A DNA stretch of 43,368 bases, taken from UHGV virus genome UHGV-1382693; one strand, 5' to 3'. The position numbers and the translations under genes were made by a program. Below the pieces are notes generated by a model. That model was not told the origin of the DNA, searched no databases, and saw nothing but the letters and a program-made list of their open reading frames with translations. The DNA comes from a virus. This document shows positions 1,250 to 29,842 of this stretch, one piece after another; within the stretch, counting starts at the first letter, position 1; each line of letters opens with the position of its first letter.

Positions 1250-1412
1250 TTCTCTTTCCTCCTTAATTGATTTTCCTAAAAATAGGTATAAAAAATACAG
1301 CTCCGCAAATATCTTGCAAAGCCGCCCCGAAGATGGTACAATATAGGTGCGAATTATAGTGCATATCTTCGGGTATGTAGGCCGGTTCCTGTTGGCGCAG
1401 GGGCCGGTTTTT

Positions 1413-1940
1413 TTATATACCATGAAACATCTGTTGTACTTGGTCTAATGCATTGTTCATTTCTGCAACTGCATTTTTATATGCCATGTATCTCCAGTAA
1501 ATGATTAAAGCATAAATGGCTATCACCATAATTGTAAAAATTATTCTATCAGCCAAAGAACGCTTTTTATAACACCATAACAATGCAAGTCCAAAGGGAG
1601 CAAAACAAAAAAATGTGAGTAACCCTATAAAAATATTTTTTTTATAGAATGGGTCTTGGTTGGAATCATGTTCTATGATATCTAAATCAGGATATTTTTC
1701 TTGAATATAATCAATTGCTCTTTGTATTGGCTCGTTACTTTTTTTTGAGAATGTAAAGCGCTTGGTTTTTCCGTATTGAAAATAAAAATCTATGTATCCC
1801 CCTTCTGTGGTAGAACGAAATTCATATTCTATCTTTTCAATATCCTCATACTTTATCTTTGACTTATTTCCAAAGATATCTATGATATTAGCTTCATCTT
1901 TTCCGATGTAAAGTTTGGCCCAATCTCCTTTAATGCTCAT
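1413..1940 (-). CDS. Membrane protein with N-terminal PH-like domain, paralog A
   Basis: AAGGAG RBS. Its N-terminal 90 aa are paralogous to the next gene (MSIKG..K.LFIGK.E.NI..FG.K...KIEY.F...NEPI.RA.DYI...PDL). Two C-terminal TM helices. AT-rich. Confidence 0.7.
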   Translation of the reverse strand: MSIKGDWAKLYIGKDEANIIDIFGNKSKIKYEDIEKIEYEFRSTTEGGYIDFYFQYGKTKRFTFSKKSNEPIQRAIDYIQEKYPDLDIIEHDSNQDPFYKKNIFIGLLTFFCFAPFGLALLWCYKKRSLADRIIFTIMVIAIYALIIYWRYMAYKNAVAEMNNALDQVQQMFHGI

Positions 1941-4917: not shown

Positions 4918-5008
4918 ATTATCTCCTTTATTATGTACTCGGCGCAGCAACGCCTGTACTTAAATTATAAAGGAGTTGGGTAGGAATGACAAGATTAAAG
5001 GAGGAATC

Positions 5009-7594: not shown

Positions 7595-8180
7595 GAATAG
7601 AACCGAGGAATTATTATTATCAACTGGCAGACAGGGCATTGATGGACTGCTGGTGGAAATGGATGAGATGGGATTTTATACAGCGCCATGCAGCACACAG
7701 TACCATCTGGCCTACTCTGGAGGACTGGCTGAACACAGCCTGAATGTATATGAACTGATGGACAAGCTTTCCAGCATCCTGCATCCAGAAGTAGATAAGA
7801 GCAGTGTCATCATATGTGCATTGCTTCATGACCTTGGTAAGGCTGGACAGTTTGGGAAACCGAACTATATTATCAACATGCTCAAGGGGCGCGGTAAGAA
7901 TGCAGAACCATATCAGTCCCCCACGAAACCTTATATCGGAAATCCAGAACTTCTGTACATTGACCATGAAGTACGTTCCATACAGATTGCAGGCCGTCAC
8001 ATTAATCTGACAGAGGAGGAGAACTGGGCAATACTGATGCACAATGGTATGTACGGCAACTTTAAATATCAGATACAGGGTAAGGAGACACCATTGTACC
8101 TGCTTTTACATATGGCTGACATGTGGGCCAGCCGGGTGACTGAAAAGGAGTGTGGAATGGATGGGGAATGCGAAGTTTGA
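7581..8180 (+). CDS. HD-domain phosphohydrolase
   Basis: H...HD motif (EHSLNV...ALLHDLGK). GGGAGG RBS. Confidence 0.8.
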   Translation: MENIKNRTEELLLSTGRQGIDGLLVEMDEMGFYTAPCSTQYHLAYSGGLAEHSLNVYELMDKLSSILHPEVDKSSVIICALLHDLGKAGQFGKPNYIINMLKGRGKNAEPYQSPTKPYIGNPELLYIDHEVRSIQIAGRHINLTEEENWAILMHNGMYGNFKYQIQGKETPLYLLLHMADMWASRVTEKECGMDGECEV

Positions 8181-8955
8181 ATTTCGGCTGCTTAAAAAGG
8201 ATGAAATAGACTGCCGCATTGCAACGGTATCCCAAAATGGCTTATCTCTGTTGTTGTACAAGGATGCCAGAGTGGACCAGAATATACTTGACGAGACTGT
8301 AGGCCCAATGGGATGGCAGCGGAGACATTGCAGGGATAACGCAAACTGCATCGTATCAATATGGGATGATGGTAAGAAGCAATGGATTGATAAAGAAGAT
8401 ACCGGTGCGGAAAGTAATACAGAAAAGGAGAAAGGGCTTGCCTCTGACAGCTTCAAGCGAGCTTGTTTTAACTGGGGTATTGGACGTGAGCTATATACTG
8501 CCCCTTTTATATGGATTGGAGAAGATGCCTGTAAAATCTATGAGAACGGTAAAGACCGCAACGGCAAGGTAAAATATAGTTGCTACGACCGATTTTATGT
8601 ATCACATATCGGATATGATGATAACCGCAACATTAATGCGCTTGAAATCAAGAGTTGCAAGAGCAAAAAGGTGGTGTATAAACTGGGCGAGTCTGAGAAT
8701 CAGCCAGTGGAACCACAAAAGGATTGCGTGACAGAAGTACACATTAATACGATTTTTGTGGAACTCAAGCGTACCGGAATAGGTTTGAATCAGATTCTTG
8801 CTGCATATAACCTTTCAGATATCCATGACATGACAATGGACCAGTTTAGGGATGCTATGGAAATCTTTAACAAGAAACCGGACAAGGAAAGGGCGACCAC
8901 TCCACCGGATGACATACAGGATGGTGGCCTACCGTGGAATGACCCCAAGAGGTAA
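8161..8955 (+). CDS. Rad52/Sak-family single-strand annealing protein
   Basis: LLLYKDARVDQNILDETVGPMGWQ and FKRACFNWGIGRELY resemble the Rad52/Sak core. AAGGAG sits 10 nt before ATG 8161. Confidence 0.75.
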   Translation: MGNAKFEFRLLKKDEIDCRIATVSQNGLSLLLYKDARVDQNILDETVGPMGWQRRHCRDNANCIVSIWDDGKKQWIDKEDTGAESNTEKEKGLASDSFKRACFNWGIGRELYTAPFIWIGEDACKIYENGKDRNGKVKYSCYDRFYVSHIGYDDNRNINALEIKSCKSKKVVYKLGESENQPVEPQKDCVTEVHINTIFVELKRTGIGLNQILAAYNLSDIHDMTMDQFRDAMEIFNKKPDKERATTPPDDIQDGGLPWNDPKR

Positions 8956-9764: not shown

Positions 9765-9807
9765 CATTTAGCCGCCCACTGCTAAGTGTGGGAGAAAAGA
9801 GGAAGAC

Positions 9808-10083
9808 ATGATGAAATTAGCGGATACAGTAGAAGGAATGAATAGTGCAGATTACAAAAAGAGATTTATTGCAGAGTATCAGCAGTTAGTTATCAGATAC
9901 AGAGGATTGGCTAATATGCTGAATAAATGGGACAGGGGAATAGAGCTTGGGTTTGTTCCAACCTGCCCACGAAGTACATATAACATGCAGATTTCTGCCA
10001 TGACTGATTATATTGCAGTTCTTGAAGCCAGGGCAGTGATGGAGGGTATTGAGTTGGATGCAAGTGCAGCTTCTTGCGATTAA
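9808..10083 (+). CDS. Hypothetical protein
   Basis: GAGGAAG RBS. 91 aa. Confidence 0.6.
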   Translation: MMKLADTVEGMNSADYKKRFIAEYQQLVIRYRGLANMLNKWDRGIELGFVPTCPRSTYNMQISAMTDYIAVLEARAVMEGIELDASAASCD

Positions 10084-10152
10084 ATCGTTATTTTGAAACT
10101 AAGAAAGGAGCCGTTCCCCGGCCGGGAAAGCATATGCGGAACCTTTTAGAAA

Positions 10153-10749
10153 ATGAAAATATTAGTGGCGTGTGAGGAATCACAAGCGGTAACGATTGAG
10201 TTGCGGAAATTGGGGCATGAAGCCTATAGTTGTGACATAGAACCGTGTAGTGGTGGACATCCAGAGTGGCATTTGCGGGTGGACGCACTGGAACTGCTGA
10301 AAATGCACTGGGACATGATTATTGCTTTTCCACCGTGTACGTATCTGAGCAATGCTGGAGCGAGACATCTTTTCCGTGGCGGTGAGCTTAACAGAGAGCG
10401 TTATGCAAAAGGATTGGAAGCAAAAGCATTTTTCCTTAATTTCTATAATGCTGACTGTCCTAAAATAGCAGTCGAAAACCCGGTTTCCAGCAGAATTTAC
10501 GAAATGCCGCCGCATACTCAGGAAATACAGCCCTGGCAGTTTGGACATCCTGTCCAGAAAAAAACACGGCTATGGCTGAAAGGGTTACCACTGCTTGAGC
10601 CAACAAACGTTGTTGAGTATAAGTGTGGATGCCATGAGGCAGGTACATGGTTTACGAAGGGTGGTAAGGATAGGCAGAAAAACAGAGCAAAAACATTCCC
10701 GGGGATTGCAAAAGCGATGGCAGAGCAGTGGGCAGGAGATATTAACTAA
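10153..10749 (+). CDS. C5-cytosine-methyltransferase-like protein (PC and ENV motifs, no recognisable FxGxG SAM motif)
   Basis: AFPPCTYLS resembles motif IV, AVENPVSS motif VI and QKKTRLW a possible motif VIII. Only 198 aa. Confidence 0.45.
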   Translation: MKILVACEESQAVTIELRKLGHEAYSCDIEPCSGGHPEWHLRVDALELLKMHWDMIIAFPPCTYLSNAGARHLFRGGELNRERYAKGLEAKAFFLNFYNADCPKIAVENPVSSRIYEMPPHTQEIQPWQFGHPVQKKTRLWLKGLPLLEPTNVVEYKCGCHEAGTWFTKGGKDRQKNRAKTFPGIAKAMAEQWAGDIN

Positions 10750-12645: not shown

Positions 12646-13384
12646 TGTCTGCCCCATATGCCACGGTAAAGGGTGGGTGTACTGGTGGGACGAGGAAGGC
12701 CGGGAAAACGGATACAGATGCGATTGCGGGCTGGTAGAACGGCAGATAGCGGACAGAAAGCTTGAATTTGCGAACATACCAGAAGCATTTAAAAAACTGG
12801 ACATACGCTCCTTCGATTTTGGGGTATACCGGAAGAATGAGAGCCAGAAGATAATCAGGAATACCGGTGCAGCCATTAAATATTATCTGGACAATCTGGA
12901 AGGAATGCGGAAGGACGGGATGGGACTGTACTTGTATTCCGGGACCAAGGGGTCAGGCAAGACACGAATGGCCGCAAGCATAGCAAACGAGATGGTCAGT
13001 ACATACAGGATGCAGGTTAAGTTTGCCGGCTCTATGCAGATTATCAACGAGATTAAGGCTACATGGGATGATAAGGACAGAAGCGAGAGTGACTTGCTAA
13101 GAGCGTTATCCACTGTCCAGGTATTAGTGATAGATGATTTCGGAACGGAGCTTCCAAAGGATTGGATAGGAGAACGGTTTTACAGCATCATCAATGGCCG
13201 GTACCAGGACAAGCTGATAACAATGTACACCAGCAATTTAAGCCTGCAGGACTTGCGATATGATGACAGGATAACCAATAGAATCAAGGAACGTACATTC
13301 CAGCTTCCATTCCCGGAAGAATCCGTTAGGGAACTGATAGCAGAGCAGAACCGGAAAGCGCTTATAGAAGGAATGAGAGGATAG
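12602..13384 (+). CDS. DnaC/IstB-like AAA+ helicase loader with N-terminal zinc finger
   Basis: Walker A GTKGSGKT, Walker B VLVIDDFG, CPICHGKG...CDCG. Overlaps the upstream gene, suggesting translational coupling. Confidence 0.8.
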   Translation: MTTSKEPEKDLPDSDVCPICHGKGWVYWWDEEGRENGYRCDCGLVERQIADRKLEFANIPEAFKKLDIRSFDFGVYRKNESQKIIRNTGAAIKYYLDNLEGMRKDGMGLYLYSGTKGSGKTRMAASIANEMVSTYRMQVKFAGSMQIINEIKATWDDKDRSESDLLRALSTVQVLVIDDFGTELPKDWIGERFYSIINGRYQDKLITMYTSNLSLQDLRYDDRITNRIKERTFQLPFPEESVRELIAEQNRKALIEGMRG

Positions 13385-13394
13385 GAGTGGAGAG

Positions 13395-13646
13395 TTGAAG
13401 GAAATACATAAAAAAATCCTGGTGTTTGTAAAGCAATACATGTTAGAGCATGATTATCCCCCCACAACCAGGGAAATAGGGGATGGGGTTGGTTATACGT
13501 CAAGCTCTACTATCTGGGGATATCTGCGGGATATGAAAGAGATAGGGTTGATTGATTATGTGAATGAATGCCCTAGAACTATAACAATACCCGGAATGCA
13601 TTACACATGGGATACCAGGGATAACATTCAGGAAAGGGGGAATTAA
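13395..13646 (+). CDS. LexA-N-terminal-like winged-helix DNA-binding protein
   Basis: KILVFVKQYMLEHDYPPTTREIGDGVGYTSSSTIWGYLRDMKEIGLI matches the LexA DNA-binding domain pattern. TTG start with AGGAG upstream. Confidence 0.65.
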   Translation: MKEIHKKILVFVKQYMLEHDYPPTTREIGDGVGYTSSSTIWGYLRDMKEIGLIDYVNECPRTITIPGMHYTWDTRDNIQERGN

Positions 13647-17021: not shown

Positions 17022-17420
17022 GTGGAGCTTACACCGAAGCAGAAAGCGTTTGCAGATTATTACATAGAATTCGGAAATGCGGCAGAAGCTGCGAGAAAGG
17101 CTGGTTATAGCTTACGGACAGCAGACGCAATAGGGCGTGAAAACTTACGGAAGCCTACGGTTTCTGCATATATATCTGAACGGCAGAAACAAATTGATGA
17201 TTGCCGCATAGCTGATGCGGCTGAAATACTGCAATACCTTACCTCTGTTATGCGCGGAGAAGTAAAAGACCAATTCGGACTTGATGCTCCGCTGGCAGAG
17301 AGGACCAAAGCGGCGGTGGAATTGGCAAAACGTAAAATAGATACAGACAAGAAGCAGGAGGGCGGCGGGATTACAATTGTCAACAACATACCAAGACCAG
17401 ACAACAATAAATCTGACTGA
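17022..17420 (+). CDS. terS: Terminase small subunit (P27 / Terminase_2 family)
   Basis: LTPKQKAFADYYIEFGNAAEAARKAGYS signature. GTG start. Confidence 0.85.
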   Translation: MELTPKQKAFADYYIEFGNAAEAARKAGYSLRTADAIGRENLRKPTVSAYISERQKQIDDCRIADAAEILQYLTSVMRGEVKDQFGLDAPLAERTKAAVELAKRKIDTDKKQEGGGITIVNNIPRPDNNKSD

Positions 17421-18636
17421 TGTAATCGCCCCTTCCTTCTATGGTGTTCACTGGGATATTATGGACGGAAAGCATACATATTATGACCTGTACGGAGGGA
17501 GAGGTTCCACGAAGTCCTCTTTCATATCTGTGGAGATTGTACTGGGTATGATGGATGACCAAGAGGCCAATGCTGTCATATTCCGAAAGTACGCTGTTAC
17601 AATTGGGGAATCAGTATTTGAGCAGATACAGTGGGCTATAGATGCGCTAGGCGTTACGGATTTATGGGAATCCCGTACAAGCCCATACCGATTTGTTTAT
17701 AAGCCGACAGGACAAAAGATAATATTCCGTGGACTTGACAAGGCGAAGAAAACAAAGTCAATTAAAGCTAGTAAGGGATACTTCAAATATTTGTGGTTTG
17801 AGGAACTGGACGAATTTGCAGGACCGGAAGAAATACGAACTGTTGAACAATCAGTGTTGCGCGGTGGAAGCAAGTTTGTTGTGTTTAAATCCTTCAACCC
17901 ACCCATCAGCCAAAGCAACTGGGCTAATCAGTATGTAAATACTCCAGACGATAGCGCGTATAGGCATAAAAGCGATTACCGTTCTGTACCGGTTGAATGG
18001 CTGGGAGAAATGTTTATTGAACGCGCAGAACATCTTAAAGCCACCAATGAGCGGGCATATAATCATGAGTATTTAGGCTTGCCGGTTGGACTTGGTACAA
18101 ATATATTTGATATGCTGGATGTACGGACAATCACAGACGAGGAAATCCAGAAATACCAAAGCATATATCAGGGGCAAGACTGGGGCTGGTTCCCGGACCC
18201 CAAAGCATTTATCCGGGCCGCTTACATACCAAACAAAGAATTGGTTGTGTTGCTTGATGAAATGGGCGGCTGTAAAATCCGTAATAGTAAGATGGCGGAG
18301 GATATACGGGCGGCTGGGTACGATGATTATACAATCTATTGTGGTGTGGATGAAGAAGAAAGCATTATAGACTTCCGTGACGCTGGTTTACCGGCACGCA
18401 GAGCCATTGTAACACCAGGAAGCAGGAAATACACCTTTGAGTGGTTGCAGTGCCGTACAATCGTTATAGACCCGGCACGCACACCGCAGGCATACAAAGA
18501 AATCATAGAATATGAGCATGAGGTTGACAGCAACGGTGAGGTGATATCGGATTACCCAGATGGAAATGACCACTGGATAGATGCACTCCGCTATGCCACA
18601 AGCCCATTATCCATGAGAAGGGGGAACAGCGCATAA
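17377..18636 (+). CDS. terL: Terminase large subunit (PBSX XtmB-like)
   Basis: Walker A YDLYGGRGSTKSS and a C-terminal nuclease region. The start is uncertain: TTG 17377 overlaps terS. Confidence 0.85.
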   Translation: MSTTYQDQTTINLTDVIAPSFYGVHWDIMDGKHTYYDLYGGRGSTKSSFISVEIVLGMMDDQEANAVIFRKYAVTIGESVFEQIQWAIDALGVTDLWESRTSPYRFVYKPTGQKIIFRGLDKAKKTKSIKASKGYFKYLWFEELDEFAGPEEIRTVEQSVLRGGSKFVVFKSFNPPISQSNWANQYVNTPDDSAYRHKSDYRSVPVEWLGEMFIERAEHLKATNERAYNHEYLGLPVGLGTNIFDMLDVRTITDEEIQKYQSIYQGQDWGWFPDPKAFIRAAYIPNKELVVLLDEMGGCKIRNSKMAEDIRAAGYDDYTIYCGVDEEESIIDFRDAGLPARRAIVTPGSRKYTFEWLQCRTIVIDPARTPQAYKEIIEYEHEVDSNGEVISDYPDGNDHWIDALRYATSPLSMRRGNSA

Positions 18637-18950: not shown

Positions 18951-20378
18951 ATGGGACTAATAACATGGGCTAAAAAGGTGATAGGAATGATATTCAAGCG
19001 ACAGGCAGAAGAAGATTTCAACGTTGAATCAGTGGTATCCCCGGAGATGGAAAGCAAGATTGCAGAGTGCGCCAATATCTACCGGGGTATTCCCTATTGG
19101 GTGAATGCTGACGATAACGTTAAGACAATCAATTTTGCAAAGGCCATATGCTCAGAGACGGCCCGACTTGCTACCCTGGCAATCGGAATACAGATTGATG
19201 GGAGTGCGCGGGCGGCGTGGCTCCAGGAGCAGATTGACAAGATATATTTCCAGATTCGCCACTGGGTAGAGTATGGTATGGCCTACGGCACAATCATCCT
19301 TAAGCCCAATGGAAAGGGACTGGACATATTCACACCGATGGACTTTATTATTACGGATTGTGACAATGAAGGTATCTATGGGATTGTATTCAAGGATAGC
19401 TACAGCGAAAATGATAAGTATTATACCCGGTTTGAGTATCATCGGTTTGTCGAGGTCAAGGAGGGGGAAAACACCTATTACCCATATTACATATCCAATA
19501 GAGCTTATGTGTCTCAGTCTGCAAAAAGTGTGGGGGACCCGATAGCATTAAACAGGACTAAGTGGTCTGACTTACTTCCAGATACACCGCCTATACTCAA
19601 GGCTAACAATGATAAAATAGACGGCCCCATGTTTGGTGTACTCCGCACTCCACAGGCTAACAATTTGGATATCTCATCACCTTTGGGATTGCCAATGTTT
19701 GCCGAGGCCATAGAAGAATTAAAGGACCTGGATGTGGCATATAGCCGGAATGTAGGTGAAATATTTGACAGTGAGAAAATCATATTAATTGATGACCAAT
19801 TAATGCTTGGTGATGGAACTAATTTAAAACGTCCAGGAGTAAATAAAGTTAAATTACCACATTATGTAAGAAATGTATTTGGAAATAGTAATGGGGAATT
19901 TTACCATGAGATTAATCCATCATTAAATACTGATACCAGAATAACCGGAATTAATAACTTACTTTCTTTCCTGGGATTTAAGTGTGGATATTCCAACGGA
20001 TATTTTGTGCTTGATGAAAAAACAGGTATGGTCACAGCAACACAGGTAGAAGCTGATGACCGCCGCACTATCCAGTTAATTAAGGATGTGCGCGACAAAC
20101 TGGAAAGTTGCCTTGATGGCGCAATATATGCGCTCAATGTATATGCTGACCTGTACGGACTGGCACCCGCCGGCAACTACGAAATCACATATGATTTTGG
20201 GGACATTACATACAATCGTGAAGAGGACAGAGCAAGATGGTGGCAGTATGTTGTGCAGGGGAAGGTACCACCCTGGATGTATTTCCAGAAGTTTGAAGGG
20301 TTATCCGAGGAAGATGCAAAGGCTATGGTACAGGAAGCACAACCGAAGGATGGGCCGAGGATGTTTGAGGAGGAATAA
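18951..20378 (+). CDS. Portal protein
   Basis: 475 aa directly after terL, with portal-like conserved regions. Confidence 0.8.
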   Translation: MGLITWAKKVIGMIFKRQAEEDFNVESVVSPEMESKIAECANIYRGIPYWVNADDNVKTINFAKAICSETARLATLAIGIQIDGSARAAWLQEQIDKIYFQIRHWVEYGMAYGTIILKPNGKGLDIFTPMDFIITDCDNEGIYGIVFKDSYSENDKYYTRFEYHRFVEVKEGENTYYPYYISNRAYVSQSAKSVGDPIALNRTKWSDLLPDTPPILKANNDKIDGPMFGVLRTPQANNLDISSPLGLPMFAEAIEELKDLDVAYSRNVGEIFDSEKIILIDDQLMLGDGTNLKRPGVNKVKLPHYVRNVFGNSNGEFYHEINPSLNTDTRITGINNLLSFLGFKCGYSNGYFVLDEKTGMVTATQVEADDRRTIQLIKDVRDKLESCLDGAIYALNVYADLYGLAPAGNYEITYDFGDITYNREEDRARWWQYVVQGKVPPWMYFQKFEGLSEEDAKAMVQEAQPKDGPRMFEEE

Positions 20379-20484: not shown

Positions 20485-21717
20485 ATGTTAAGCCCTGATT
20501 ACCTTGCAAGAATCGCAGAAGGAAGCGAAGAAATAGCCTCACAACTCCATACATACATTATTCGTCAGATAATAGACCGCATGATGATACGCATAGGCCG
20601 CGGCGATGATTGCCTGCTCACCTCATCTGACCGATGGCGCATACATGTATTGCAGGACGCAGGGTATCTGCTGGAGGATATAACAGCAGAGTTATCCAAG
20701 TACACCAAGAGGCAGGAGAAAGAGATTAAAGCGGCTATGGAGGAGGCCGGGATAAAAGCTCTGGAATACGACCACAGAATATACGAGGCCGCCGGCCTGT
20801 CTCCTATGCCCCTGACGCAATCCCCGGCCCTTATTCGGCTGATGGAACGCAATTACCTGGCAACATTAGGGGAATGGAAAAACTACACTAGGACAACCGC
20901 GCAATCTGCTCAAAGATTATTTATTAACGAGTGCGATATGGCCTATAACAAAGTTATGAGTGGAGCAACATCTTACACACAAGCAGTTAAAGAGGCCGTA
21001 GAAAATGTGGCCAGTGGGGGTATTACACTTGTTCAATATAGAAGTAAAAATACTGGAGATATAAGAAATGACACGATAGAGACAGCTACAGCACGAGCGG
21101 TACGGACTGGTATAGCACAGGCTACGGCGGAAATTACGCTGGCAAGAATGGTAGAAATGAAGTGGGAAGTTGTGCTGGTGTCGGCGCATGTGGGCGCAAG
21201 AAATGTTGGGGGGATACCAGAGAATCATGAACTTTGGCAAGGAAAATTCTACAGTCTCCCGCAATATGGACATAGATTCCCGGATTTCTATTACTCTACA
21301 GGATATGGAGATATTACTGGATTGTGCGGAGTAAATTGTAGGCATAGTTTTGGACCAGGTGATGGAGAAAATAATCCGTATGACCCAATAGACACAGAGG
21401 AAAATCGAAATCAGTACGAAAAAGAGCAACGCCAGCGAACGCTTGAACGCCGCATCCGCAAGACCAAGCGCGAGGTTATGGGCCTGCAAGAGGCCGTAGA
21501 GAAATGCCAGGACAAGGCGGCAAAGTTTGAGCTACAGCAGGCGCTTGACCGGAAATCCTACTTGCTATCCAAGCAGTATAAGGCATATAACGAGTTTTGT
21601 AAGGAGAATAACCTTAGAACTCAGTCAGAGAGATTACAGATTGCCCGCTGGAGCCGTGAACAGGCTGCAAAGGCCAGAGGGGCGGCGAGACGGTATCAAA
21701 ATGCGAAAGGGGAATGA
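20485..21717 (+). CDS. Head morphogenesis protein (SPP1 gp7 / Mu F-like minor capsid protein)
   Basis: Sits after the portal gene. MuF-like central region. C-terminal coiled coil. Confidence 0.7.
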   Translation: MLSPDYLARIAEGSEEIASQLHTYIIRQIIDRMMIRIGRGDDCLLTSSDRWRIHVLQDAGYLLEDITAELSKYTKRQEKEIKAAMEEAGIKALEYDHRIYEAAGLSPMPLTQSPALIRLMERNYLATLGEWKNYTRTTAQSAQRLFINECDMAYNKVMSGATSYTQAVKEAVENVASGGITLVQYRSKNTGDIRNDTIETATARAVRTGIAQATAEITLARMVEMKWEVVLVSAHVGARNVGGIPENHELWQGKFYSLPQYGHRFPDFYYSTGYGDITGLCGVNCRHSFGPGDGENNPYDPIDTEENRNQYEKEQRQRTLERRIRKTKREVMGLQEAVEKCQDKAAKFELQQALDRKSYLLSKQYKAYNEFCKENNLRTQSERLQIARWSREQAAKARGAARRYQNAKGE

Positions 21718-22103
21718 ATTTGAATAGATGGAAACCATATAACCCTAACCCAGTCCGTAATCAGCGTGTAGGCGACTGTGCCATACGTGCAATCTGCAAA
21801 GCAACCGGACAGGATTGGGAAACCGCCTTTGCTGGCGTTATGGTGGTGGCGTGCGAGAAATCAGATATGCCGTCAGCTAACAGCGTGTGGGGGACATATC
21901 TCAGGCGCAACGGGTTTCGGAGAAACATTATACCAGACGAATATCCAGAAGATTATACCGTGGAAGAATTTTCGGCAGACCACCAAAACGGAGTATTTGT
22001 TCTTGGGCTTGATGGTCATGTGGTAACGGTTGTGGATGGATTTTACTGGGACACATGGGACAGCGGTCAAGAAATACCAATATACTACTGGGAAAGGCGA
22101 TAA
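21714..22103 (+). CDS. Papain-like (C39 / BtrH-like) cysteine-peptidase-fold protein
   Basis: GDCAIRAI carries the candidate catalytic Cys, and DGHVVTVVDG the downstream His/Asp. ATGA-coupled to MuF. Confidence 0.4.
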   Translation: MNLNRWKPYNPNPVRNQRVGDCAIRAICKATGQDWETAFAGVMVVACEKSDMPSANSVWGTYLRRNGFRRNIIPDEYPEDYTVEEFSADHQNGVFVLGLDGHVVTVVDGFYWDTWDSGQEIPIYYWERR

Positions 22104-22106
22104 TTT

Positions 22107-22400
22107 ATGGAAACATTAAACTCTATTATGGTTGTATGCGGTTGGCTTATTACTCTTGGAGGCGCAGGAGCCGTAATATACAAATTGTTGCATCCGGCAT
22201 TTAAGCTAAAAAATCGAGTGGATAAATTAGAAATAAATGTGGAAAATGATTATAAATCTATCAAAGAAATAAGAGATATGCAATCTCTTTTATGCCAAGG
22301 AATGATAGCATTAATTGATAATCGTATAACCGGTAACAACATAGAGGGTTTAAAAAAAACCAAAGAAGCTATGATAAAGCATTTGTCAGAAGGTATTTAA
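22107..22400 (+). CDS. Small membrane protein (N-terminal TM + coiled coil)
   Basis: TM segment IMVVCGWLITLGGAGAVIY. AT-rich. Confidence 0.55.
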   Translation: METLNSIMVVCGWLITLGGAGAVIYKLLHPAFKLKNRVDKLEINVENDYKSIKEIRDMQSLLCQGMIALIDNRITGNNIEGLKKTKEAMIKHLSEGI

Positions 22401-22411
22401 GGAGCGTTGCG

Positions 22412-22612
22412 TTGAAGGTATATGACTTTACAGTGCCAGAACTAAACTATTTTCGTACATATTGTAACTTTACGGATGAAGAACGGGCACTGTTTGAGTA
22501 CCGGGCCAAGAACTATCCTTTGGAGTATTGCGCTGAATTAATGAATGTAAGTGTATCCACAGCAAAGAGATTGAGCAGAAAAGTAAACAACAAAATAATC
22601 CGATTATGTTGA
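22412..22612 (+). CDS. Sigma-70 region-4-only HTH protein
   Basis: LEYCAELMNVSVSTAKRLSRKVNNKI looks like region 4.2. AAGGAG RBS. TTG start. Confidence 0.6.
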   Translation: MKVYDFTVPELNYFRTYCNFTDEERALFEYRAKNYPLEYCAELMNVSVSTAKRLSRKVNNKIIRLC

Positions 22613-22636
22613 TACTTGCGTGATACTTTTATAAGT

Positions 22637-22666
22637 CTTTGACGACCTGTCAAGGGCTTATTTTTT
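22637..22666 (+). terminator. Intrinsic terminator
   Basis: CTTTGAC-gacct-GTCAAGG stem followed by gcttatttttta. Confidence 0.55.
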
Positions 22667-22704
22667 ATGGGATAATTGGATTATAAAAGAACGGAGGGGA
22701 TATA

Positions 22705-23175
22705 ATGCCGCAACCATTTATCAATCCAAACTATCTGAATACATATCCAAACGCATATCCTTATCAGCCACAGATGCAACCACCTATGGACCGATTGCAG
22801 CAGCTACAGGCACCATACCAAATGTCGCAACAGACGCAGGTTTCACAGGTCCCGCAGACCAACCAGGGAATATTATGGGTGCAGGGTGAAGCCGGGGCAA
22901 AGTCGTATTTAGTAGCGCCAAGCACATCCATATTACTGATGGATAGCGAAAATGAGTACTTTTATATTAAAACAACAGATGCAGCAGGTATGCCAACACT
23001 CCGCACTTTTGAATATAAAGAGATTGTTAATGGACGGAAAAAGGAATCTACATCGGCTGAAAATCTGGATGAAAAGTATGTTACCAGAAATGAGTATCAG
23101 GATTTAAAGGCAAAATATGATGAATTATATGGACTTTTAGAAACCAGTACAGCACCAACAGGAAAGGGGAAGTAA
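22705..23175 (+). CDS. P/Q-rich N-terminal protein with conserved C-terminal domain
   Basis: GGAGGGG RBS. N-terminal PQPFINPNYLNTYPNAYPYQPQMQPP. Confidence 0.65.
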   Translation: MPQPFINPNYLNTYPNAYPYQPQMQPPMDRLQQLQAPYQMSQQTQVSQVPQTNQGILWVQGEAGAKSYLVAPSTSILLMDSENEYFYIKTTDAAGMPTLRTFEYKEIVNGRKKESTSAENLDEKYVTRNEYQDLKAKYDELYGLLETSTAPTGKGK

Positions 23176-23178
23176 TAT

Positions 23179-23436
23179 ATGAATCCATTATTTAACATGT
23201 TAGGTGGAATGGGTGGAGGTAGCCCAATGGGAGGAATGATTCCTGGGATGGGCGGAGGAAACAACCCCATGCAGATGATACAGAAATTTATGGAGTTTAA
23301 AAACAATTTCAAGGGAAACCCTCAAGAAGAAGTACAGAAGATGCTACAGTCCGGCCAGATAACTCAGCGGCAATTAGACCAGGCCCAGCAAATGGCCCGG
23401 CAGTTTCAGCAGATGCTTAATGGCATGAAAAAATAG
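23179..23436 (+). CDS. Gly/Met-rich small protein
   Basis: GGMGGGSPMGGMIPGMGGGNNPMQM. AAGGGG RBS. Confidence 0.6.
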   Translation: MNPLFNMLGGMGGGSPMGGMIPGMGGGNNPMQMIQKFMEFKNNFKGNPQEEVQKMLQSGQITQRQLDQAQQMARQFQQMLNGMKK

Positions 23437-23490
23437 TACATAAATCAATGCGCATGATTTTGTAAATATATTTTAAAGGAGTAGACAATT

Positions 23491-24207
23491 ATGGATTCAA
23501 GCTATAGTTTAGCAGACATTGCCGCCGCTACAGGAGGAACAAACCGCAACAATGATGGCTTTGGAGATGGCGGCGCATGGTGGATTATTATACTGTTCTT
23601 ATTTGTTTTCTGTGGCTGGGGCAATGGAAACGGCTTTGGAAACAATGGAGCAGGAGGTGCAGGATTGCAGGGATTAGCAACACGTGCAGACATCAATGAG
23701 GGATTTGCCCTCAACGGAATCGAAAATGGTATAAGGGGTATTCAGCAGGGCATTTGTGATAGCACGTATGCGCTGAACAACACCATTACCAGCGGTTTCA
23801 GCGGAGTGGACCGTAGCTTATGCCAGATGGGCTATCAGCTCCATGATTGCTGTTGCCAGACACAGCGCGCAATTGATGGTGTAAATTATAACCTGGCTAC
23901 ACAGTCATGCGATACCAGAAACACCATTCAGACCGCAACTAGGGATATTCTGGACAACAACAACAGCAATACAAGAGCTATTCTTGACTTCTTAACTCAG
24001 GATAAGATTTCTACCTTACAGGCGGAGAATCAAACCCTTAGATTCCAGGCAAGCCAGACTGCCCAGAACGGATTTATTGATGCAGTTGGTAACTCAATCG
24101 TTGCACAGCTTCGTCAGCCGCAGCCTGTACCGGCTTATACGGTTCCAGCGCCATATCCATATGCCTCTAACTGTGGTTGTGGATGCAATACTGGATGCGG
24201 GTGCTAA
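23491..24207 (+). CDS. Membrane protein with Gly-rich region and Cys-rich C-terminus
   Basis: AAAGGAG RBS. TM segment WWIIILFLFVFCGW flanked by G/N-rich sequence. Ends CGCGCNTGCGC. Confidence 0.7.
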   Translation: MDSSYSLADIAAATGGTNRNNDGFGDGGAWWIIILFLFVFCGWGNGNGFGNNGAGGAGLQGLATRADINEGFALNGIENGIRGIQQGICDSTYALNNTITSGFSGVDRSLCQMGYQLHDCCCQTQRAIDGVNYNLATQSCDTRNTIQTATRDILDNNNSNTRAILDFLTQDKISTLQAENQTLRFQASQTAQNGFIDAVGNSIVAQLRQPQPVPAYTVPAPYPYASNCGCGCNTGCGC

Positions 24208-24416
24208 TGAGAAACGAACAGTTTTACGATAATCTTGCTCTGTATGCAACTGCATTGCAAATGATAAATTTGCTTTTGATTGTTGGTGATGTGTCAAATA
24301 ATGATATTATGGAAGCATTGCAACAGGAGAATAAGGAATACATGGAAAAGATTATCGACCAAAACAACCGCATATTGCGTATCTTGTCCGAAAAGGACAT
24401 GTCTACTGAACAGTAG
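24207..24416 (+). CDS. Small hypothetical protein
   Basis: TAATG coupling. 69 aa. Confidence 0.45.
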   Translation: MRNEQFYDNLALYATALQMINLLLIVGDVSNNDIMEALQQENKEYMEKIIDQNNRILRILSEKDMSTEQ

Positions 24417-24478
24417 TATTACACACATGGAAGGGTAGGCATAAGCTTGCCCTTCTGTGCATATAAGGAGGATTTATT

Positions 24479-24877
24479 ATGGCAGATTTTGTAACTGCTG
24501 GGACACAGACTGTTGCAGTCAATGCAAGCGTTCTGTTTGCTGCAAACAGGATATATTCTTGCAATTGTCCAAACATAAGGCATGAGGCACTCTCTGGTAG
24601 GGTAGTTTTGCTTCCTGGCCTGTACCGCGTAGGATTTAACGGAAACTTTTCCGCAGCCGCAGCAGGTGACGTTATTTTTGAAGTACAGCAGGACGGCGAA
24701 GGCATTCCCGGTGCAAGAATTCAGAACACAGTTGCCGCCGGCGCAACAATCAATGGAGCGGCAACTGTAGAAGTAAGGGTGTGCAAACCATGTTGTGCTA
24801 CCCTATCAGTAAAAAACGTTGGAGCCACAGCAGCGGCAGTATCAGACGCTAACCTTGTTGTTAGCAGAATAGGTTAA
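24479..24877 (+). CDS. Ala/Gly/Val-rich beta-rich protein with Cys pairs (structural subunit-like)
   Basis: AAGGAGG RBS. SCNCPN near the N-terminus and CKPCC near the C-terminus. Confidence 0.7.
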   Translation: MADFVTAGTQTVAVNASVLFAANRIYSCNCPNIRHEALSGRVVLLPGLYRVGFNGNFSAAAAGDVIFEVQQDGEGIPGARIQNTVAAGATINGAATVEVRVCKPCCATLSVKNVGATAAAVSDANLVVSRIG

Positions 24878-24889
24878 GGGGGTAAGGCT

Positions 24890-25429
24890 ATGAGCTATAA
24901 GATGATGCAGAATATCCATGAAGAACTGGATAAGATTGCGGAAAAGGGCCTGAACACTAGCAACCTTGAAACCGCATACAAACTGATAGACATGTGGAAA
25001 GACATGGAGAATGTGGAGTACTGGAAGTGCAAAAAAGAGTACTACAATCAGGTAATGGACGAAATGGATGGCGGAGAATACAGCGAAGCGCGCCGCAAAC
25101 GCGACAGCATGGGACGTTATAGCCGTGCTGATGGAATGTCACAGGACTATGATAATGACAGCTCATATCGCGGCACACGCGGAAAACATTACGTCAGAGG
25201 ACACTACAGCCGTGCGACCGGTCCGGCCTATGATGACTACATGAATCAGAAGCAGAGCTACAGAAGTGGTGGAAAAGATGAGGATTGCAAGCGGCGTATG
25301 CTTGCGGCCTTAGAGGAACATATGGACGAACTAACCGAAGAGTTGGGAGAAATGTCAAAAGATGCTGATTGCCGCGAGGAACGGGAAACCATGAAAAGAT
25401 ATATCGAAAAGTTGCGTAATATGATGTAA
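24890..25429 (+). CDS. Charged helical protein, hypothetical
   Basis: AGGGGG RBS. Several Cys residues. Helical heptad-like N- and C-terminal regions. Confidence 0.65.
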   Translation: MSYKMMQNIHEELDKIAEKGLNTSNLETAYKLIDMWKDMENVEYWKCKKEYYNQVMDEMDGGEYSEARRKRDSMGRYSRADGMSQDYDNDSSYRGTRGKHYVRGHYSRATGPAYDDYMNQKQSYRSGGKDEDCKRRMLAALEEHMDELTEELGEMSKDADCREERETMKRYIEKLRNMM

Positions 25430-25498: not shown

Positions 25499-25789
25499 TT
25501 AAATATGATTCCAATCTAACATAATATGGATTTCTTTTTCTTCATTATTGATTGCACATAGACAGGGTGATTCTTTCCCTTGAATCAGCTCGTTTGGTGT
25601 ATAAGTCCAACCCCACGGAGCCGTCAACACAATGCCGGCCTCTGTCTCGTCACATCCCCATCCTTCTGGCACTGTGTATTCTATTGGTTCGCTTTCTACT
25701 GCTGTTGGATGAGGATTGCCCTCAGTAAATACCGGATGTTTCTCAGCAGCCAAACATCCATAATTTATGTATCCTTTAAATGTTTTCAT
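25499..25789 (-). CDS. Hypothetical protein (last gene of reverse operon)
   Basis: AGGAGGAG RBS 7 nt upstream. 96 aa with WGxxE and WGW motifs. Confidence 0.6.
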   Translation of the reverse strand: MKTFKGYINYGCLAAEKHPVFTEGNPHPTAVESEPIEYTVPEGWGCDETEAGIVLTAPWGWTYTPNELIQGKESPCLCAINNEEKEIHIMLDWNHI

Positions 25790-25801
25790 TTTTTCTCCTC
25801 C

Positions 25802-26218
25802 TTACAATATGGTTTCATGTACCTCGCGCCCTGCCCGCACATTTTCCAGGTAATTGGGGTCTATGCTCTTTGGACAGTACTCATAATCGCTGTCCTCAAC
25901 TCCTATTTTTGCCATTTCGTCATGTATAATTTTAAAATAATCATCATGAGAAAAGTTGCGGGAATCAGAAAATACATTGTAATTTTCCGGTAACAATTTC
26001 TCATAGGCCAAATCTGAAAAATTATTTAAAAGTTTTTTCATCAGACATGGATGAATCAGTTCTTCCAATTGTCTGATGATTAATTCTTCGGCCCAGGGAG
26101 CCGGGTTCCGTTTCCCAGCCTCCCAATCCTCTATGGTCCTTGTTGGTATACCAAGGTAATCAGATAAATCAGATTGTGTCATGTTGGTTTTCGTACGGTA
26201 CTCTTTAATTCTGTTCAT
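25802..26218 (-). CDS. XRE-family HTH regulator with C-terminal domain
   Basis: MTQSDLSDYLGIPTRTIEDWEAGKRNP HTH. AAGGAGG RBS before ATG 26218. Confidence 0.75.
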   Translation of the reverse strand: MNRIKEYRTKTNMTQSDLSDYLGIPTRTIEDWEAGKRNPAPWAEELIIRQLEELIHPCLMKKLLNNFSDLAYEKLLPENYNVFSDSRNFSHDDYFKIIHDEMAKIGVEDSDYEYCPKSIDPNYLENVRAGREVHETIL

Positions 26219-26228
26219 AACGACCTCC

Positions 26229-26540
26229 TTATTTAACATGTTGTATGATGTATTTGGCATCTGTCATTTTTTCTAACTGACCGATAAGGCTTTCAATTCC
26301 GGCCGTGTAACTCTGCGCATCCATCTTACCCCTGGACATCATTATTCCGGCCATCTCGTCTGTCTTAAAAACCTTCTGGACCAGAATATCTTTTGCATAT
26401 GCCACCTGTTTCTCAGTTCCGGTCATTTCCTGGGTAAACATAAAAGCAATGATTTTATGGCAGTCGGCCCGGTCTACCAGGATATTATATCCGTTCAGCT
26501 CGTTTCTCATTTCCTTTGTATTCTCTGCTCGTCTCATCAT
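26229..26540 (-). CDS. Hypothetical protein (first gene of reverse operon)
   Basis: 103 aa. RBS-like AAGGATGGGGG. Upstream promoter with operator. Confidence 0.55.
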   Translation of the reverse strand: MMRRAENTKEMRNELNGYNILVDRADCHKIIAFMFTQEMTGTEKQVAYAKDILVQKVFKTDEMAGIMMSRGKMDAQSYTAGIESLIGQLEKMTDAKYIIQHVK

Positions 26541-26940: not shown

Positions 26941-27139
26941 ATATTTGACCTCCCTCCTATAGCACATGTCCTTAAAAGAAACAGGTTCTAGCGCATAGCG
27001 TGAACAGCCTGGAGGTTGAAAAGCGGATGCAATTTCCGGCATGTGCGTTTTTGGACAAGTCAAGTCCTACAAAATGGCAACCGTTGGTGGACGGTTACAC
27101 ACCTACAAATAACCTAATAACGGAAAAGGAGAATCATCA

Positions 27140-27757
27140 ATGAAAACCGAAGAATTAAAAGCGCAGGGATTGACAGAGGAACAGATATCTTTTGTCATGG
27201 CTGAAAATGGAAAAGACCTTAAAAAGTTGCAGAAAGAAAATGACAATCTGACATCCGAACGGGATACCTGGAAAGAAAAAGCAGAAGCAGCAGAAACAAC
27301 GCTGAAAGGCTTTGAAGGGGTTGACCTTGAGACGATGCAGAAAGAACTGTCTGACTGGAAACAAAAGGCAGCAGATGCAGAAAAGAATGCCCAGGAACAG
27401 CTCTATGAGCGTGATTTTTCGGACGCTCTGAAAACGGAATTTGAGGGTATTAAGTTTTCTAGCGAAGCGGCTAAGCGTGCAATTATGGCAGAAGTCAAGG
27501 CAGCCGGATTAAAACTTAAAGATGGTAAAATCCTGGGGCTGAATGACCTTTTGTCCCAAATGAAAGAAAAGGACGCTTCGGCATTTATTGATGATGCGCA
27601 GCAACAGGAACAGCAGAACATGGCGAGATTTACGGCGCCGATAAAAGGAACGACCGGAGGAGCGCTGACAAAATCAGATTTTAAGGGTATGAGCCTGGAT
27701 GCAAAAATTGAATTAAAACAGAAAAATCCAGAACTTTACAACAATTTGAAAGGATAA
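27140..27757 (+). CDS. Scaffolding protein (Phage_GP20-like)
   Basis: MKTEELKAQGLTEEQISFVMAENGKDLKKLQ. Helical, charged. Precedes the major capsid gene. Confidence 0.75.
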   Translation: MKTEELKAQGLTEEQISFVMAENGKDLKKLQKENDNLTSERDTWKEKAEAAETTLKGFEGVDLETMQKELSDWKQKAADAEKNAQEQLYERDFSDALKTEFEGIKFSSEAAKRAIMAEVKAAGLKLKDGKILGLNDLLSQMKEKDASAFIDDAQQQEQQNMARFTAPIKGTTGGALTKSDFKGMSLDAKIELKQKNPELYNNLKG

Positions 27758-27763
27758 TGAATT

Positions 27764-28783
27764 ATGCCAAGAACAGGAACATTCGGAGGGTTTGCATTTG
27801 ACCCGGAAGTATTTGCTGATTACATGGCGGAGCAGCCTACATGGAGCAATGCAATTATCGCCTCGGGCATATTGCAGCAGGATAGCACCATTATGAACCT
27901 TATCGGGTCCGAAGGTAATGTTGCAACACTTCCATTTTACAAAGCAATGGACATTACGGATTACGAACCATATAACAATGATGGAAACACAAATAACACC
28001 CCGAAGGAGATTAGCGGCGGGAAGCAGACTACCATGCTGATACAGAGAATGATGGCATGGAAAGCACAGGATTTTACACAGGAGCTTACCGGGGCTGACC
28101 CGATGCAGCATATTGCAAACAGCGTTACCGATTACTATCGTCAGGTTTGGGAAGCAGAACTCATGAATATTGTAAACGCGGTCATGAAACTTGATACAAT
28201 TAAGGACCATGTTTATGACATTTCGCTTTCTGATGATAGTAGTGTTGCAGATGCCAATAAGATTGATGAAACAACCATGATTTATGCACAGCAGAAAGCA
28301 CTCGGCGACATGGCTAATGGGTTTGGAATTGCAATCATGAACTCACTCATATTTGCGAGATACCAGGCTATGGGGATGGTGAACTACAATAAGTACACAA
28401 TCCAGAATGCATTGACATCAGAAGTCAACCTCCCGACAATTAACGGTCTTATCCCGGTAGTGTCAGACCGATTTACGGTTGATACCAGTGGAGAAGTCCC
28501 GAAATACATAACTACAATCGTGGGACAGGGAGCTATACTGACAGCTGAAAAGACCAATTACAAGGAACCTTACTACGCGGATTATGACGCGGAGACTAAG
28601 GCTGGTATTGAAAAACTGTATACCAAGGAAGGGCGCGTGCTGCATCCGAACGGCTTCAATCTCAAGGTTGCAAGCATTGCTGGGGAATCCCCGACCAAGA
28701 CGGAACTTGGAAACAAGGCTAACTGGGAGCTTGCATACAAGGCAAAGAACATCCGTATCGGTCAGATTATTTCCAACGGATAA
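27764..28783 (+). CDS. Major capsid protein
   Basis: 339 aa after the scaffold. MPRTGTFGGFAFDPEVFADYM N-terminus. Confidence 0.8.
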   Translation: MPRTGTFGGFAFDPEVFADYMAEQPTWSNAIIASGILQQDSTIMNLIGSEGNVATLPFYKAMDITDYEPYNNDGNTNNTPKEISGGKQTTMLIQRMMAWKAQDFTQELTGADPMQHIANSVTDYYRQVWEAELMNIVNAVMKLDTIKDHVYDISLSDDSSVADANKIDETTMIYAQQKALGDMANGFGIAIMNSLIFARYQAMGMVNYNKYTIQNALTSEVNLPTINGLIPVVSDRFTVDTSGEVPKYITTIVGQGAILTAEKTNYKEPYYADYDAETKAGIEKLYTKEGRVLHPNGFNLKVASIAGESPTKTELGNKANWELAYKAKNIRIGQIISNG

Positions 28784-29010: not shown

Positions 29011-29505
29011 ATGGCATATGCAGACTATGAGTTTTACACAACAAAATACTACGGCAGTTCCATACCGGATTCCCAATCATTTGATAAGCAGGCAGAACGG
29101 GCAAGCGACTTCCTTGATAAAATAACATTTGACAGATTGGTTGACGGCCTCCCAGATAATGAACGAGTGCAAACCAAAATCAAGAAAGCCGTATGTGCAT
29201 TAGCTGATAAACTGTATGGTTTGGAACTGGCAGAAAAACAGGCGCTATCTGCCGCCGCGGGAAGTATAACCAGCGGGACCGGCGGCGCAACCACAGGCGT
29301 TATCACGTCAAAGTCATCCGGTTCCGAATCAATCAGCTATGCATCCCCGTCAGAAATAGCTAACGGAGCTAAAGCCTGGAGTGATATATATTCTGCGGCG
29401 GGGAATAAACAGGAAACAAATAATCCCCTGTATGATACCGCAAAGGTGTATCTGATGGGAGTAAAAGATAACGAAGGGACTCCACTTTTATATGCAGGAT
29501 TGTAA
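29011..29505 (+). CDS. Head-tail connector (gp6/gp15-like)
   Basis: DYEFYTTKYYGSSIPDSQSFDKQAERASDFLDKITFDRL. Confidence 0.7.
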   Translation: MAYADYEFYTTKYYGSSIPDSQSFDKQAERASDFLDKITFDRLVDGLPDNERVQTKIKKAVCALADKLYGLELAEKQALSAAAGSITSGTGGATTGVITSKSSGSESISYASPSEIANGAKAWSDIYSAAGNKQETNNPLYDTAKVYLMGVKDNEGTPLLYAGL

Positions 29506-29842
29506 AGTAAACATTCTGGGAACGGAATGGGAAGTTGTCCAGCGTGATGAAAAATCGGATGAAAACCTGGATGGGAAATTTAGGGATGGATATACCGATT
29601 TTTCTACACATATGATTGTGATTTGCAATAAAAAGGACGATTGCGAATTAAAGGACTATGAAGGATATAAAAATGCCATATTACGGCATGAACTCATCCA
29701 TGCGTTTTTGTATGAAAGCGGTCTGGATTCTTCAAGTTCAAATACATGCGGAGCGTGGGCAACTAATGAAGAAATGATTGACTGGTTCGCTATTCAGTCT
29801 CCGAAGATTTTCAAAGTATTCATGGAATTGGGTTTGCTCTGA
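29492..29842 (+). CDS. HExxH-motif small protein (putative metallopeptidase-like)
   Basis: RHELIHAFLYESG. Confidence 0.5.
   Translation: MQDCKVNILGTEWEVVQRDEKSDENLDGKFRDGYTDFSTHMIVICNKKDDCELKDYEGYKNAILRHELIHAFLYESGLDSSSSNTCGAWATNEEMIDWFAIQSPKIFKVFMELGLL

Follow-up and report, generated by a model that had tools for sequence, protein, structure and literature searches.

The low-complexity genes at positions 22705-25429 of the UHGV virus genome UHGV-1382693 raise the question of what they do for the phage that carries them. The window examined here is the whole stretch of 43,368 nucleotides. A first-pass annotation had described a cassette of six genes, encoding proteins rich in P/Q, G/M, Cys or A/G/V, and had proposed either lysogenic-conversion cargo akin to spore-coat or surface-fibre proteins or, alternatively, capsid decoration. 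In the reading favoured here, to which a probability of roughly 40% is assigned, the cassette is a self-regulated accessory module of gut-Clostridia phages that is used in productive infection. Confidence in any specific role is much lower than confidence in this class of explanation, our best guess being an assembly that is anchored in the membrane, can be cross-linked through cysteines and acts around lysis or release.

A conserved gene module with its own regulatory region

The module has the following features in the window:

21714-22103, plus strand: u129, 129 amino acids (aa), matching phrog_3754 at 2.6e-33
22107-22400, plus strand: 97-aa protein with an N-terminal transmembrane (TM) helix and a helical tail
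22412-22612, plus strand: helix-turn-helix (HTH) protein, 66 aa, sigma-70 region-4-like
22610-22617 and 22621-22628, plus strand: two direct TGATACTT repeats, a candidate operator read from the sequence
22631-22661, plus strand: terminator-like hairpin, then a T run
22668-22676, plus strand: extended -10-like TGgGATAAT, with no good -35
22705-23175, plus strand: A, 156 aa
23179-23436, plus strand: B, 85 aa
23491-24207, plus strand: C, 238 aa
24177 or 24207 to 24416, plus strand: D, 79 or 69 aa
24479-24877, plus strand: E, 132 aa
24890-25429, plus strand: F, 179 aa

All six co-oriented open reading frames (ORFs) from A to F are present on the plus strand with ribosome-binding sites, five of them starting at ATG with a GGAGG-like site upstream, and the compositions first described for their products were matched by measurement against the other window proteins as background. 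The six genes stand as a cassette, but the left border had been drawn too narrowly: the conserved unit is 21714-25429, which adds u129, the TM gene, the HTH gene and the regulatory gap 22610-22704. None of the six products was recognised by Pfam or NCBIfam. Five match PHROG families of unknown function (2e-12 to 6e-71), and every one of the ORFs has same-order homologues in up to 168 other loci; thus these are not chance ORFs but conserved phage genes. An evident N-terminal signal peptide, as read from the translations without a predictor, was found in none of the products except C.

Loci were gathered by iterated hidden Markov model (HMM) searches, first of species genomes and phage records (84 loci) and then of IMG/VR (80 independent loci). 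Without exception the genes are arranged as (HTH)-(u129)-A-(B)-C-(D)-E-F, where brackets mark optional genes, with the following occupancy:

A: 77 of 84 genome or phage loci; 79 of 80 IMG/VR loci
HTH, adjacent upstream: 57 of 84 genome or phage loci; 68 of 80 IMG/VR loci
E-slot filled: about 83 of 88 loci; 79 of 80 IMG/VR loci
B: 45 of 84 genome or phage loci; 17 of 80 IMG/VR loci
u129: 42 of 84 genome or phage loci; 17 of 80 IMG/VR loci

C is followed by a Cys-containing protein of 125-150 aa (about 83 of 88 loci) and then by a protein of 130-280 aa with a disordered R/Y-rich part. Of 73 loci, 40 have both B and u129 and just 2 break the pairing; the two genes form an optional sub-module. Products of the hallmark gene C fall into at least 7,999 clusters at 90% identity; at 50% identity there are 2,745, all of about 100-400 aa and without fusions. 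Its relatives are found in at least 190 bacterial species genomes, almost all of Clostridia, and in at least 586 IMG/VR contigs of 27-85 kb; at least one host metagenome-assembled genome (MAG) of the cassette is labelled Anaeroplasmatales. A tblastn search for C in 50,697 phage records found homologues only in gut-metagenome phages and three Clostridium perfringens phages, and none in the Bacillus and C. difficile phages of that collection. Contigs labelled siphovirus, myovirus and podovirus all carry the cassette.

The HTH protein, which matches phrog_1190 'RNA polymerase sigma factor' (9.5e-6) and Pfam Sigma70_r4_2 (0.011), is likely the regulator of the cassette. Its stop codon is followed, in order, by the TGATACTT repeats, the hairpin with its T run, TGgGATAAT and a strong ribosome-binding site, and GAYACTTT repeats similar to those of the window occur in many related loci. 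The gap from the HTH gene to the next cassette gene was compared with control windows in the 48 loci that have an adjacent HTH gene. A hairpin with a T run is present in 32 of the 48 (14% of control windows) and an extended -10 (TGnNAWAAT) in 23 (10% of controls), while the hairpin followed by the extended -10, in that order, is present in 12 as against 1.7% of controls. The enrichment of this layout next to the HTH gene suggests that the HTH protein controls a dedicated promoter, which from its bases looks like a housekeeping one (sigma-A, extended -10) and not like one of sigma-E or sigma-K. No terminator was found 3' of F in the window.

Proteins of the module

Only one family link of the cassette is secure, that between E and the BclA-C/C1q fold. 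E (17% A, 14% V and 10% G, with Cys at 28, 30, 102, 105 and 106) gave a confident model (predicted local distance difference test, pLDDT, 86.8) with a TNF-like ten-strand jelly roll of the BclA-C/C1q/TNF type, bearing out the earlier description of a jellyroll-like A/G-rich subunit with Cys near both ends; C30 and C105-C106 are conserved in its family, E1. Pfam BclA_C (PF18573) does not match the window E at E<=1 but is reached at E<=0.01 by 9 of the 40 family members, with 4.4e-7 as the best value, and two relatives carry a precomputed PF18573 annotation. A profile search of PDB sequences with E gave no significant match. E is the globular domain alone, with no collagen stalk or GXX repeats in the sequence or the family alignment, and is presumably a trimer. 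Its best viral structural matches are stand-alone proteins of 130-145 aa from gut sipho-, myo- and podovirus contigs.

The same fold is found in the exosporium proteins BclA, ExsFA (BxpB) and F-BclA of the Bacillus cereus group. E differs from these in that identity is only 14-22%, that it has neither a collagen-like stalk nor an exosporium leader, that it is encoded by Clostridia phages in a cassette without any other exosporium homologue, and that its slot can hold the unrelated Cys-rich protein E2. The endospore appendage proteins Ena (DUF3992), F-ENA (DUF4183) and A-ENA share with the cassette small subunits that bear Cys or cross-link themselves; F-ENA fibres carry a BclA-like C1q domain at the tip (PMC12357932), and A-ENA has helical hairpins as building blocks (PMC13111695). 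No homology to these appendages is claimed: there was no DUF3992 or DUF4183 match, the fold of E is that of BclA-C and not of Ena, E has neither a DUF3992 domain nor an Ena jelly roll with an N-terminal Cys connector, and C is membrane-anchored and 238 aa long, unlike a 100-aa hairpin. The YjcZ model matched neither C nor B, whose likeness to it is a Gly-flanked hydrophobic helix alone, and the model for CotY/CotZ/ExsY (Spore-coat CotZ-type) gave no match to C, E or F in Pfam or NCBIfam. Of the coat families in Pfam and NCBIfam, Ena/DUF3992, YjcZ and CotY/ExsY included, none was matched by a protein of the cassette.

C is the TM and Cys-rich protein that had been described. It has a single hydrophobic helix, WWIIILFLFVFC; 13% of its residues are G and 10% are N, and its 12 Cys (background 0.6% Cys) include CCC at 120-122 and the tail CGCGCNTGCGC. 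It is built, in order, of a short N-terminal helix, the TM helix, a G/N-rich linker, a long coiled coil, a Pro-rich PxPVPAYxVPAPYPY segment and a Cys-rich tail. CCC 120-122, K172, E179 and N180 are invariant, C89 and C140 nearly so, and the PxPVPAY motif is conserved. C matches phrog_16490 (2e-62); a profile search against PDB sequences gave nothing significant. Its AlphaFold2 model, unlike that of E, is poor (pLDDT 52, predicted template modelling score 0.19), and only secondary structure was taken from it, with no fold search: TM 30-41, a disordered Gly-rich linker, helices 77-102 and 107-207, and a disordered Pro/Cys-rich tail.

The N-terminal TM helix, predicted long Cys-bearing coiled coil and Pro-rich end of C are reminiscent of lambda-type i-spanins and o-spanins (Rz/Rz1), and in other loci, although not in the window, the cassette is often directly 3' of holin and endolysin genes. 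The likeness is architectural. Unlike spanins, the cassette has five or more extra genes, shows no sequence similarity, and was not noticed to include a lipoprotein partner or lipobox gene; its hosts are probably single-membraned, whereas a spanin would need a host with an outer membrane.

The upstream protein u129 is a putative papain-like Cys/His hydrolase, judging from its invariant GDC...GH...D.W.S motifs and from C22, H102 and D113, which are invariant among 13 aligned sequences. It has no match in Pfam, NCBIfam or a PDB profile search; the spacing of 80 residues between Cys and His is presumably like that of C39 domains. C and u129 bear together on the possibility that the cassette is a device directed at the host or at competitors, such as superinfection exclusion, a membrane defence, or a bacteriocin-like C with a leader cut by u129, a protein of about the size of C39. 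An accessory position, separate regulation and slot swapping are typical of conflict systems, Gly-rich stretches flank the TM helix of C, and many C N-termini fit the double-glycine leader pattern LSxxDIxxxTGG/N, where AlphaFold2 places a helix. However, the commonest variants lack the leader-like motif, and its correlation with u129 is weak (odds ratio 3.2, p 0.03, with no correction for relatedness); with co-occurrence so weak, removal of a double-glycine-like leader from C by u129 is not claimed. A PADLOC scan of nine proteins at E<=0.01 was negative, a transporter or an immunity gene is not apparent, known defence proteins do not look like the low-complexity partners, and the recoding described below argues against the expression in lysogens that exclusion would need. 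Such a device is very unlikely.

A, a core gene product always encoded immediately 5' of (B)-C, has 14 Q and 10 P in residues 1-55; in the alignment a disordered Q/P/Y-rich N-terminus is followed by a conserved beta-rich domain of about 55 aa and a C-terminal helix. It matches phrog_21718 (3e-48) and has no match in a PDB profile search. B (phrog_22984 at 3e-20) has 11 G and 7 M in residues 1-32 and is Q-rich in the remainder, where the G/M-rich N-terminus is followed by the conserved helix NPxEEixKLLQSGxISQQQLNQAQQMAQQ. D is a small, optional helical protein that most likely starts at ATG 24207 (69 aa), overlapping the TAA of C, the alternative being TTG 24177 (79 aa); its slot is taken in about 9-17 loci, those of C. 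perfringens phages among them, by homologues of 66-81 aa. An imperfect hairpin without a T run (24420-24455) separates D from the strong ribosome-binding site that precedes E; it may be an mRNA processing or stability element. F (phrog_28802 at 6e-71) has a disordered middle, rich in R, Y, D, S and G at residues 60-130, between helical N- and C-terminal parts. The 97-aa TM protein has no family match and is confined to the closest relatives (loci L002-L004).

Movable position, exchanged slots and recoding

The position of the cassette was examined relative to the following genes of the window, which from its gene content is a temperate siphophage-like element:

179-1423, minus strand: integrase
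17377-18636: large terminase
18951-20378: portal
20485-21717: MuF-type minor head protein
27140-27757: scaffold
27764-28783: major capsid protein (MCP), phrog_247

Here the cassette lies inside the head-gene block, between the MuF and scaffold genes; Dulem virus 35 and about 30 further loci also have it between these two genes. The commonest variant, P0123 (405 contigs), carries it right after holin and endolysin genes, beside an integrase or a prophage end, and so does Anaerotruncus colihominis. In locus L079 it is directly 3' of the holin and 5' of divergently transcribed replication genes, in some loci it is upstream of the lysis genes, and in plaque-isolated, phiCP13O-related C. perfringens phages it lies between lysis and early genes. 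It is also present in large phages with NrdD and other replication genes.

The cassette is likewise independent of the type of capsid. In L004, a relative of the window phage in a Dorea MAG, A, E and F are 96%, 95% and 97% identical to those of the window, and the portal, scaffold and head-tail adaptor are 86-93% identical, the scaffold and adaptor on either side of the MCP gene being at 86-90%, whereas the MCP (12674-13570) belongs to phrog_544 and has no BLASTP similarity to the phrog_247 protein of the window. L003, a phage near-identical to that of L004, has the same neighbours but has exchanged E1 for an E2-like protein. The E-slot holds either E1, which is BclA-like, or the Cys-rich family E2, which has no Pfam or PDB match; both have conserved Cys, and an E1-E2 comparison by hhalign gives a probability of 0.2. 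A value of 99% obtained earlier was an artefact of grouping by Cys count and fell to 0.2 after grouping by HMM membership, so that kinship of E1 and E2 was rejected. The F-slot holds the window type F1 or, in 13 of 66 slot proteins, DUF7841 proteins. The cassette thus behaves as movable cargo and not as a fixed part of the head module, and the exchange of proteins in its E and F slots is what one would expect of a specificity system.

These observations bear on whether the products are virion-associated, either packed with MuF as internal proteins or an ejection conduit through the thick wall, to which C would bring a TM helix and a long helix, or attached by an adaptor as head fibres or decoration. 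The location between MuF and scaffold/MCP genes on the same strand, in the lineages named above, is what chiefly keeps a virion role open. TNF/C1q-like domains are also frequent among phage fibres, the PRD1 vertex protein being another example (fold-match ranks 22, 23, 40 and 48), recoding is compatible with structural genes, and evident signal peptides are lacking. However, in most other phages the cassette follows the lysis genes or sits among the early ones; an HTH gene, a terminator and a promoter of its own come with it; unrelated families fill its E and F slots; and contigs labelled siphovirus, myovirus and podovirus carry it. A second ejection conduit would be redundant in the window, which already has an 821-aa ORF of tape-measure size. 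Capsid decoration, the alternative first offered, is disfavoured by the differing MCP family despite near-identical A, E and F, since the cassette is not co-inherited with one MCP. A virion-associated role is on balance unlikely.

The second line of evidence comes from relatives that read TAG as Gln. Eight loci are of this kind (L054, at 7962-8801, and L018, L029, L036, L048, L053, L067 and L079), with in-frame TAG at Q positions of other family members, for example CCC*TQ as against CCCQTQ; the window's own copy has no in-frame TAG. In five of these recoded loci, a total of 29 cassette genes, all versions of A, B, C, E or F, contain 62 in-frame TAG codons, so that full translation by the host alone is impossible there. 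Recoded codons require a phage suppressor tRNA. TAG makes up 21% of Gln codons in the cassette, 35% in tail and lysis genes and 19% in opposite-strand genes, inconsistently between loci; thus, recoding shows dependence on the phage code and not late timing, and its use as a sign of a 'late' cassette was dropped. A passage in PMC10879173, citing Borges 2022, describes recoded codons as typical of lysis and structural genes. At 55-2181 of L079, 5' of tail-fibre-like genes, a 708-aa protein is encoded whose sequence resembles a leucine-rich-repeat (BspA-like) surface protein.

Recoding bears directly on the proposal that the cassette is spore-coat- or exosporium-like cargo, expressed by a sporulating lysogen and altering the spore or cell surface. 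The BclA-C/ExsFA fold of E fits this proposal, as do the mostly clostridial hosts, the lack of evident signal peptides, as in coat proteins assembled in the mother cell, and the frequent location at a prophage end beside an integrase, the classic position of a moron. The compositions are ones that we take to be like those of GerQ, SafA and CotT (Q/P/Y/M/G), CotG (R/S/Y) and Cys-rich coat proteins, and the Cys/His enzyme might be their partner in the manner of Tgl or YabG. The likeness to SafA, GerQ, CotT, CotG and CotY/ExsY with Tgl/YabG is thus one of composition, of a Cys/His enzyme and of apparently cytoplasmic proteins, but homology is not detectable, and the expression logic of the cassette points to the lytic programme of a phage, not to the mother cell. 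In-frame TAG would truncate A, B, C, E and F under the standard code, there is no sequence match to coat, Ena, YjcZ or CotY families, the promoter is sigma-A-like, and the tblastn matches to C are confined to gut-metagenome and C. perfringens phages; together these disfavour spore conversion. The plaque-isolated phiCP13O-related phages, the phages with NrdD and replication genes, and the host MAG labelled Anaeroplasmatales also argue against it. Of the lysogenic conversion first proposed, the movable cargo is retained, in view of the variable positions, while conversion of the spore or cell surface fits poorly with the amber codons, the plaque-isolated phages, the housekeeping-like promoter and the lack of an evident signal peptide in all products but C, and is the least probable explanation considered here.

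The surroundings of the cassette in the window vary as well. Between F and the scaffold gene, a three-gene block on the minus strand (25499-26540), including an XRE-type HTH protein (25802-26260, minus strand), splits the late genes; L004 carries an HNH endonuclease at the same site, which therefore looks like an insertion hot spot. Just 5' of the scaffold gene, a RAGATH-21 RNA (83.5 bits) and a GP20-b RNA (40.9 bits) lie back to back at 26961-27116. In related loci the F-scaffold gap holds RAGATH-21 or 1-3 tRNA genes, plus GP20-b, which suggests that the transcript is punctuated and processed there. Away from the cassette, at 29492-29842, the window encodes a 116-aa phrog_1233 protein whose relatives have an HExxH motif; a homologue (about 105 aa, HExxH) is directly 3' of the F-slot in about 18 of the first 88 loci and is nearby in 35 of 80 IMG/VR loci. 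The nearest relatives of the window phage are prophages in Enterocloster hominis and one Dorea MAG, and a close homologue of A is on record from Enterocloster bolteae. The sole near-identical DNA in the phage collection searched is a stretch of 560 bp in the methyltransferase region (9800-10359), which is 93% identical to Enterocloster phage PMBT24. At 5001-6000 (ORF 4976-6157), G+C jumps to 0.53, from about 0.36-0.45 elsewhere, and AT skew to 0.44.

A proposed module for productive infection

In the reading favoured here, the HTH protein would be made at the end of the preceding transcription unit, and the -35-less extended -10 promoter, flanked by direct repeats and situated after the hairpin, would drive A-(B)-C-(D)-E-F as a unit of its own, the proteins being produced in the cytoplasm of a productively infected cell. 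C would provide a membrane anchor and a coiled-coil stalk of about 15 nm with Pro- and Cys-rich segments at its end; E or E2 would serve as the globular subunit, which can be exchanged; long disordered linkers rich in Q/P/Y, G/M and R/Y would come from A, B and F, respectively; and u129 might process or cross-link the B branch. The product would be a cysteine-cross-linkable supramolecular assembly, acting either at the envelope at about the time of lysis or alongside released virions, as a matrix that adheres or protects. The conserved cysteines suggest covalent hardening, and the frequent adjacency to holin genes, together with the independence of capsid and tail type, suggests action at the envelope around lysis or on released material.

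Several points weigh against this. The reality of the genes, the conservation and mobility of the module, the fold of E, the architecture of C, the independence of capsid type and the recoding are shown here, but the timing of expression, the physical assembly and the site of action are inferred. The model of C is of low confidence (pLDDT 52), and the bulk of C may lie inside or outside. In the window lineage the cassette lies within the head-gene block on the same strand, and it may be co-transcribed with the scaffold and MCP genes through the transcript punctuated by RAGATH-21 or tRNA, an arrangement also in keeping with a role in the virion. The cassette does not consistently exceed opposite-strand genes in its use of TAG (21% as against 19% of Gln codons overall), and a matrix or egress function would be ascribed to the cassette by analogy.

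The cassette shares with phage morons a terminator-like hairpin and its own promoter, the extended -10 upstream of A, as well as variable position and exchange between phages. Morons, however, are typically expressed from the prophage, whereas the recoded relatives, with their in-frame TAG codons, could not be fully translated in an uninduced lysogen, and recoding and the occurrence in non-integrating phages point to lytic growth. The cassette is also unusually large for a moron (6-9 genes) and is widely conserved. Literature searches on DUF7841, and on BclA in connection with prophages, turned up no account of the cassette, although the search was limited and an earlier description is possible; a comparative genomics paper on phiCP39O/CP26F-type phages does not mention the cassette genes. 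As a whole, the module has no counterpart described in the literature searched; A, B, D, F, E2 and u129 may prove to be remote relatives of known folds.

A more specific and quite improbable form of the idea is that, in phages of oxygen-sensitive gut Clostridia, a dedicated module turned on by a regulator of its own supplies the C anchor, a BclA-like trimer and sticky disordered proteins, which make up a spore-coat-like, cysteine-hardened material that coats, clumps or shelters released virions or the lysing cell. If true, this material would be the bacterial-virus counterpart of occlusion bodies or 'spore silk', for transit outside the gut.

All members of the C family are still annotated as hypothetical, so that a role, once found, would annotate thousands of genes. 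It would also show the viral reuse of a spore-surface fold, BclA-C, and could explain the persistence or spread of phages of strict anaerobes. A module of 6-9 genes that is conserved, is independent of capsid and tail type and has its own regulator suggests that gut Clostridia phages go through a step missing from current models of their life.

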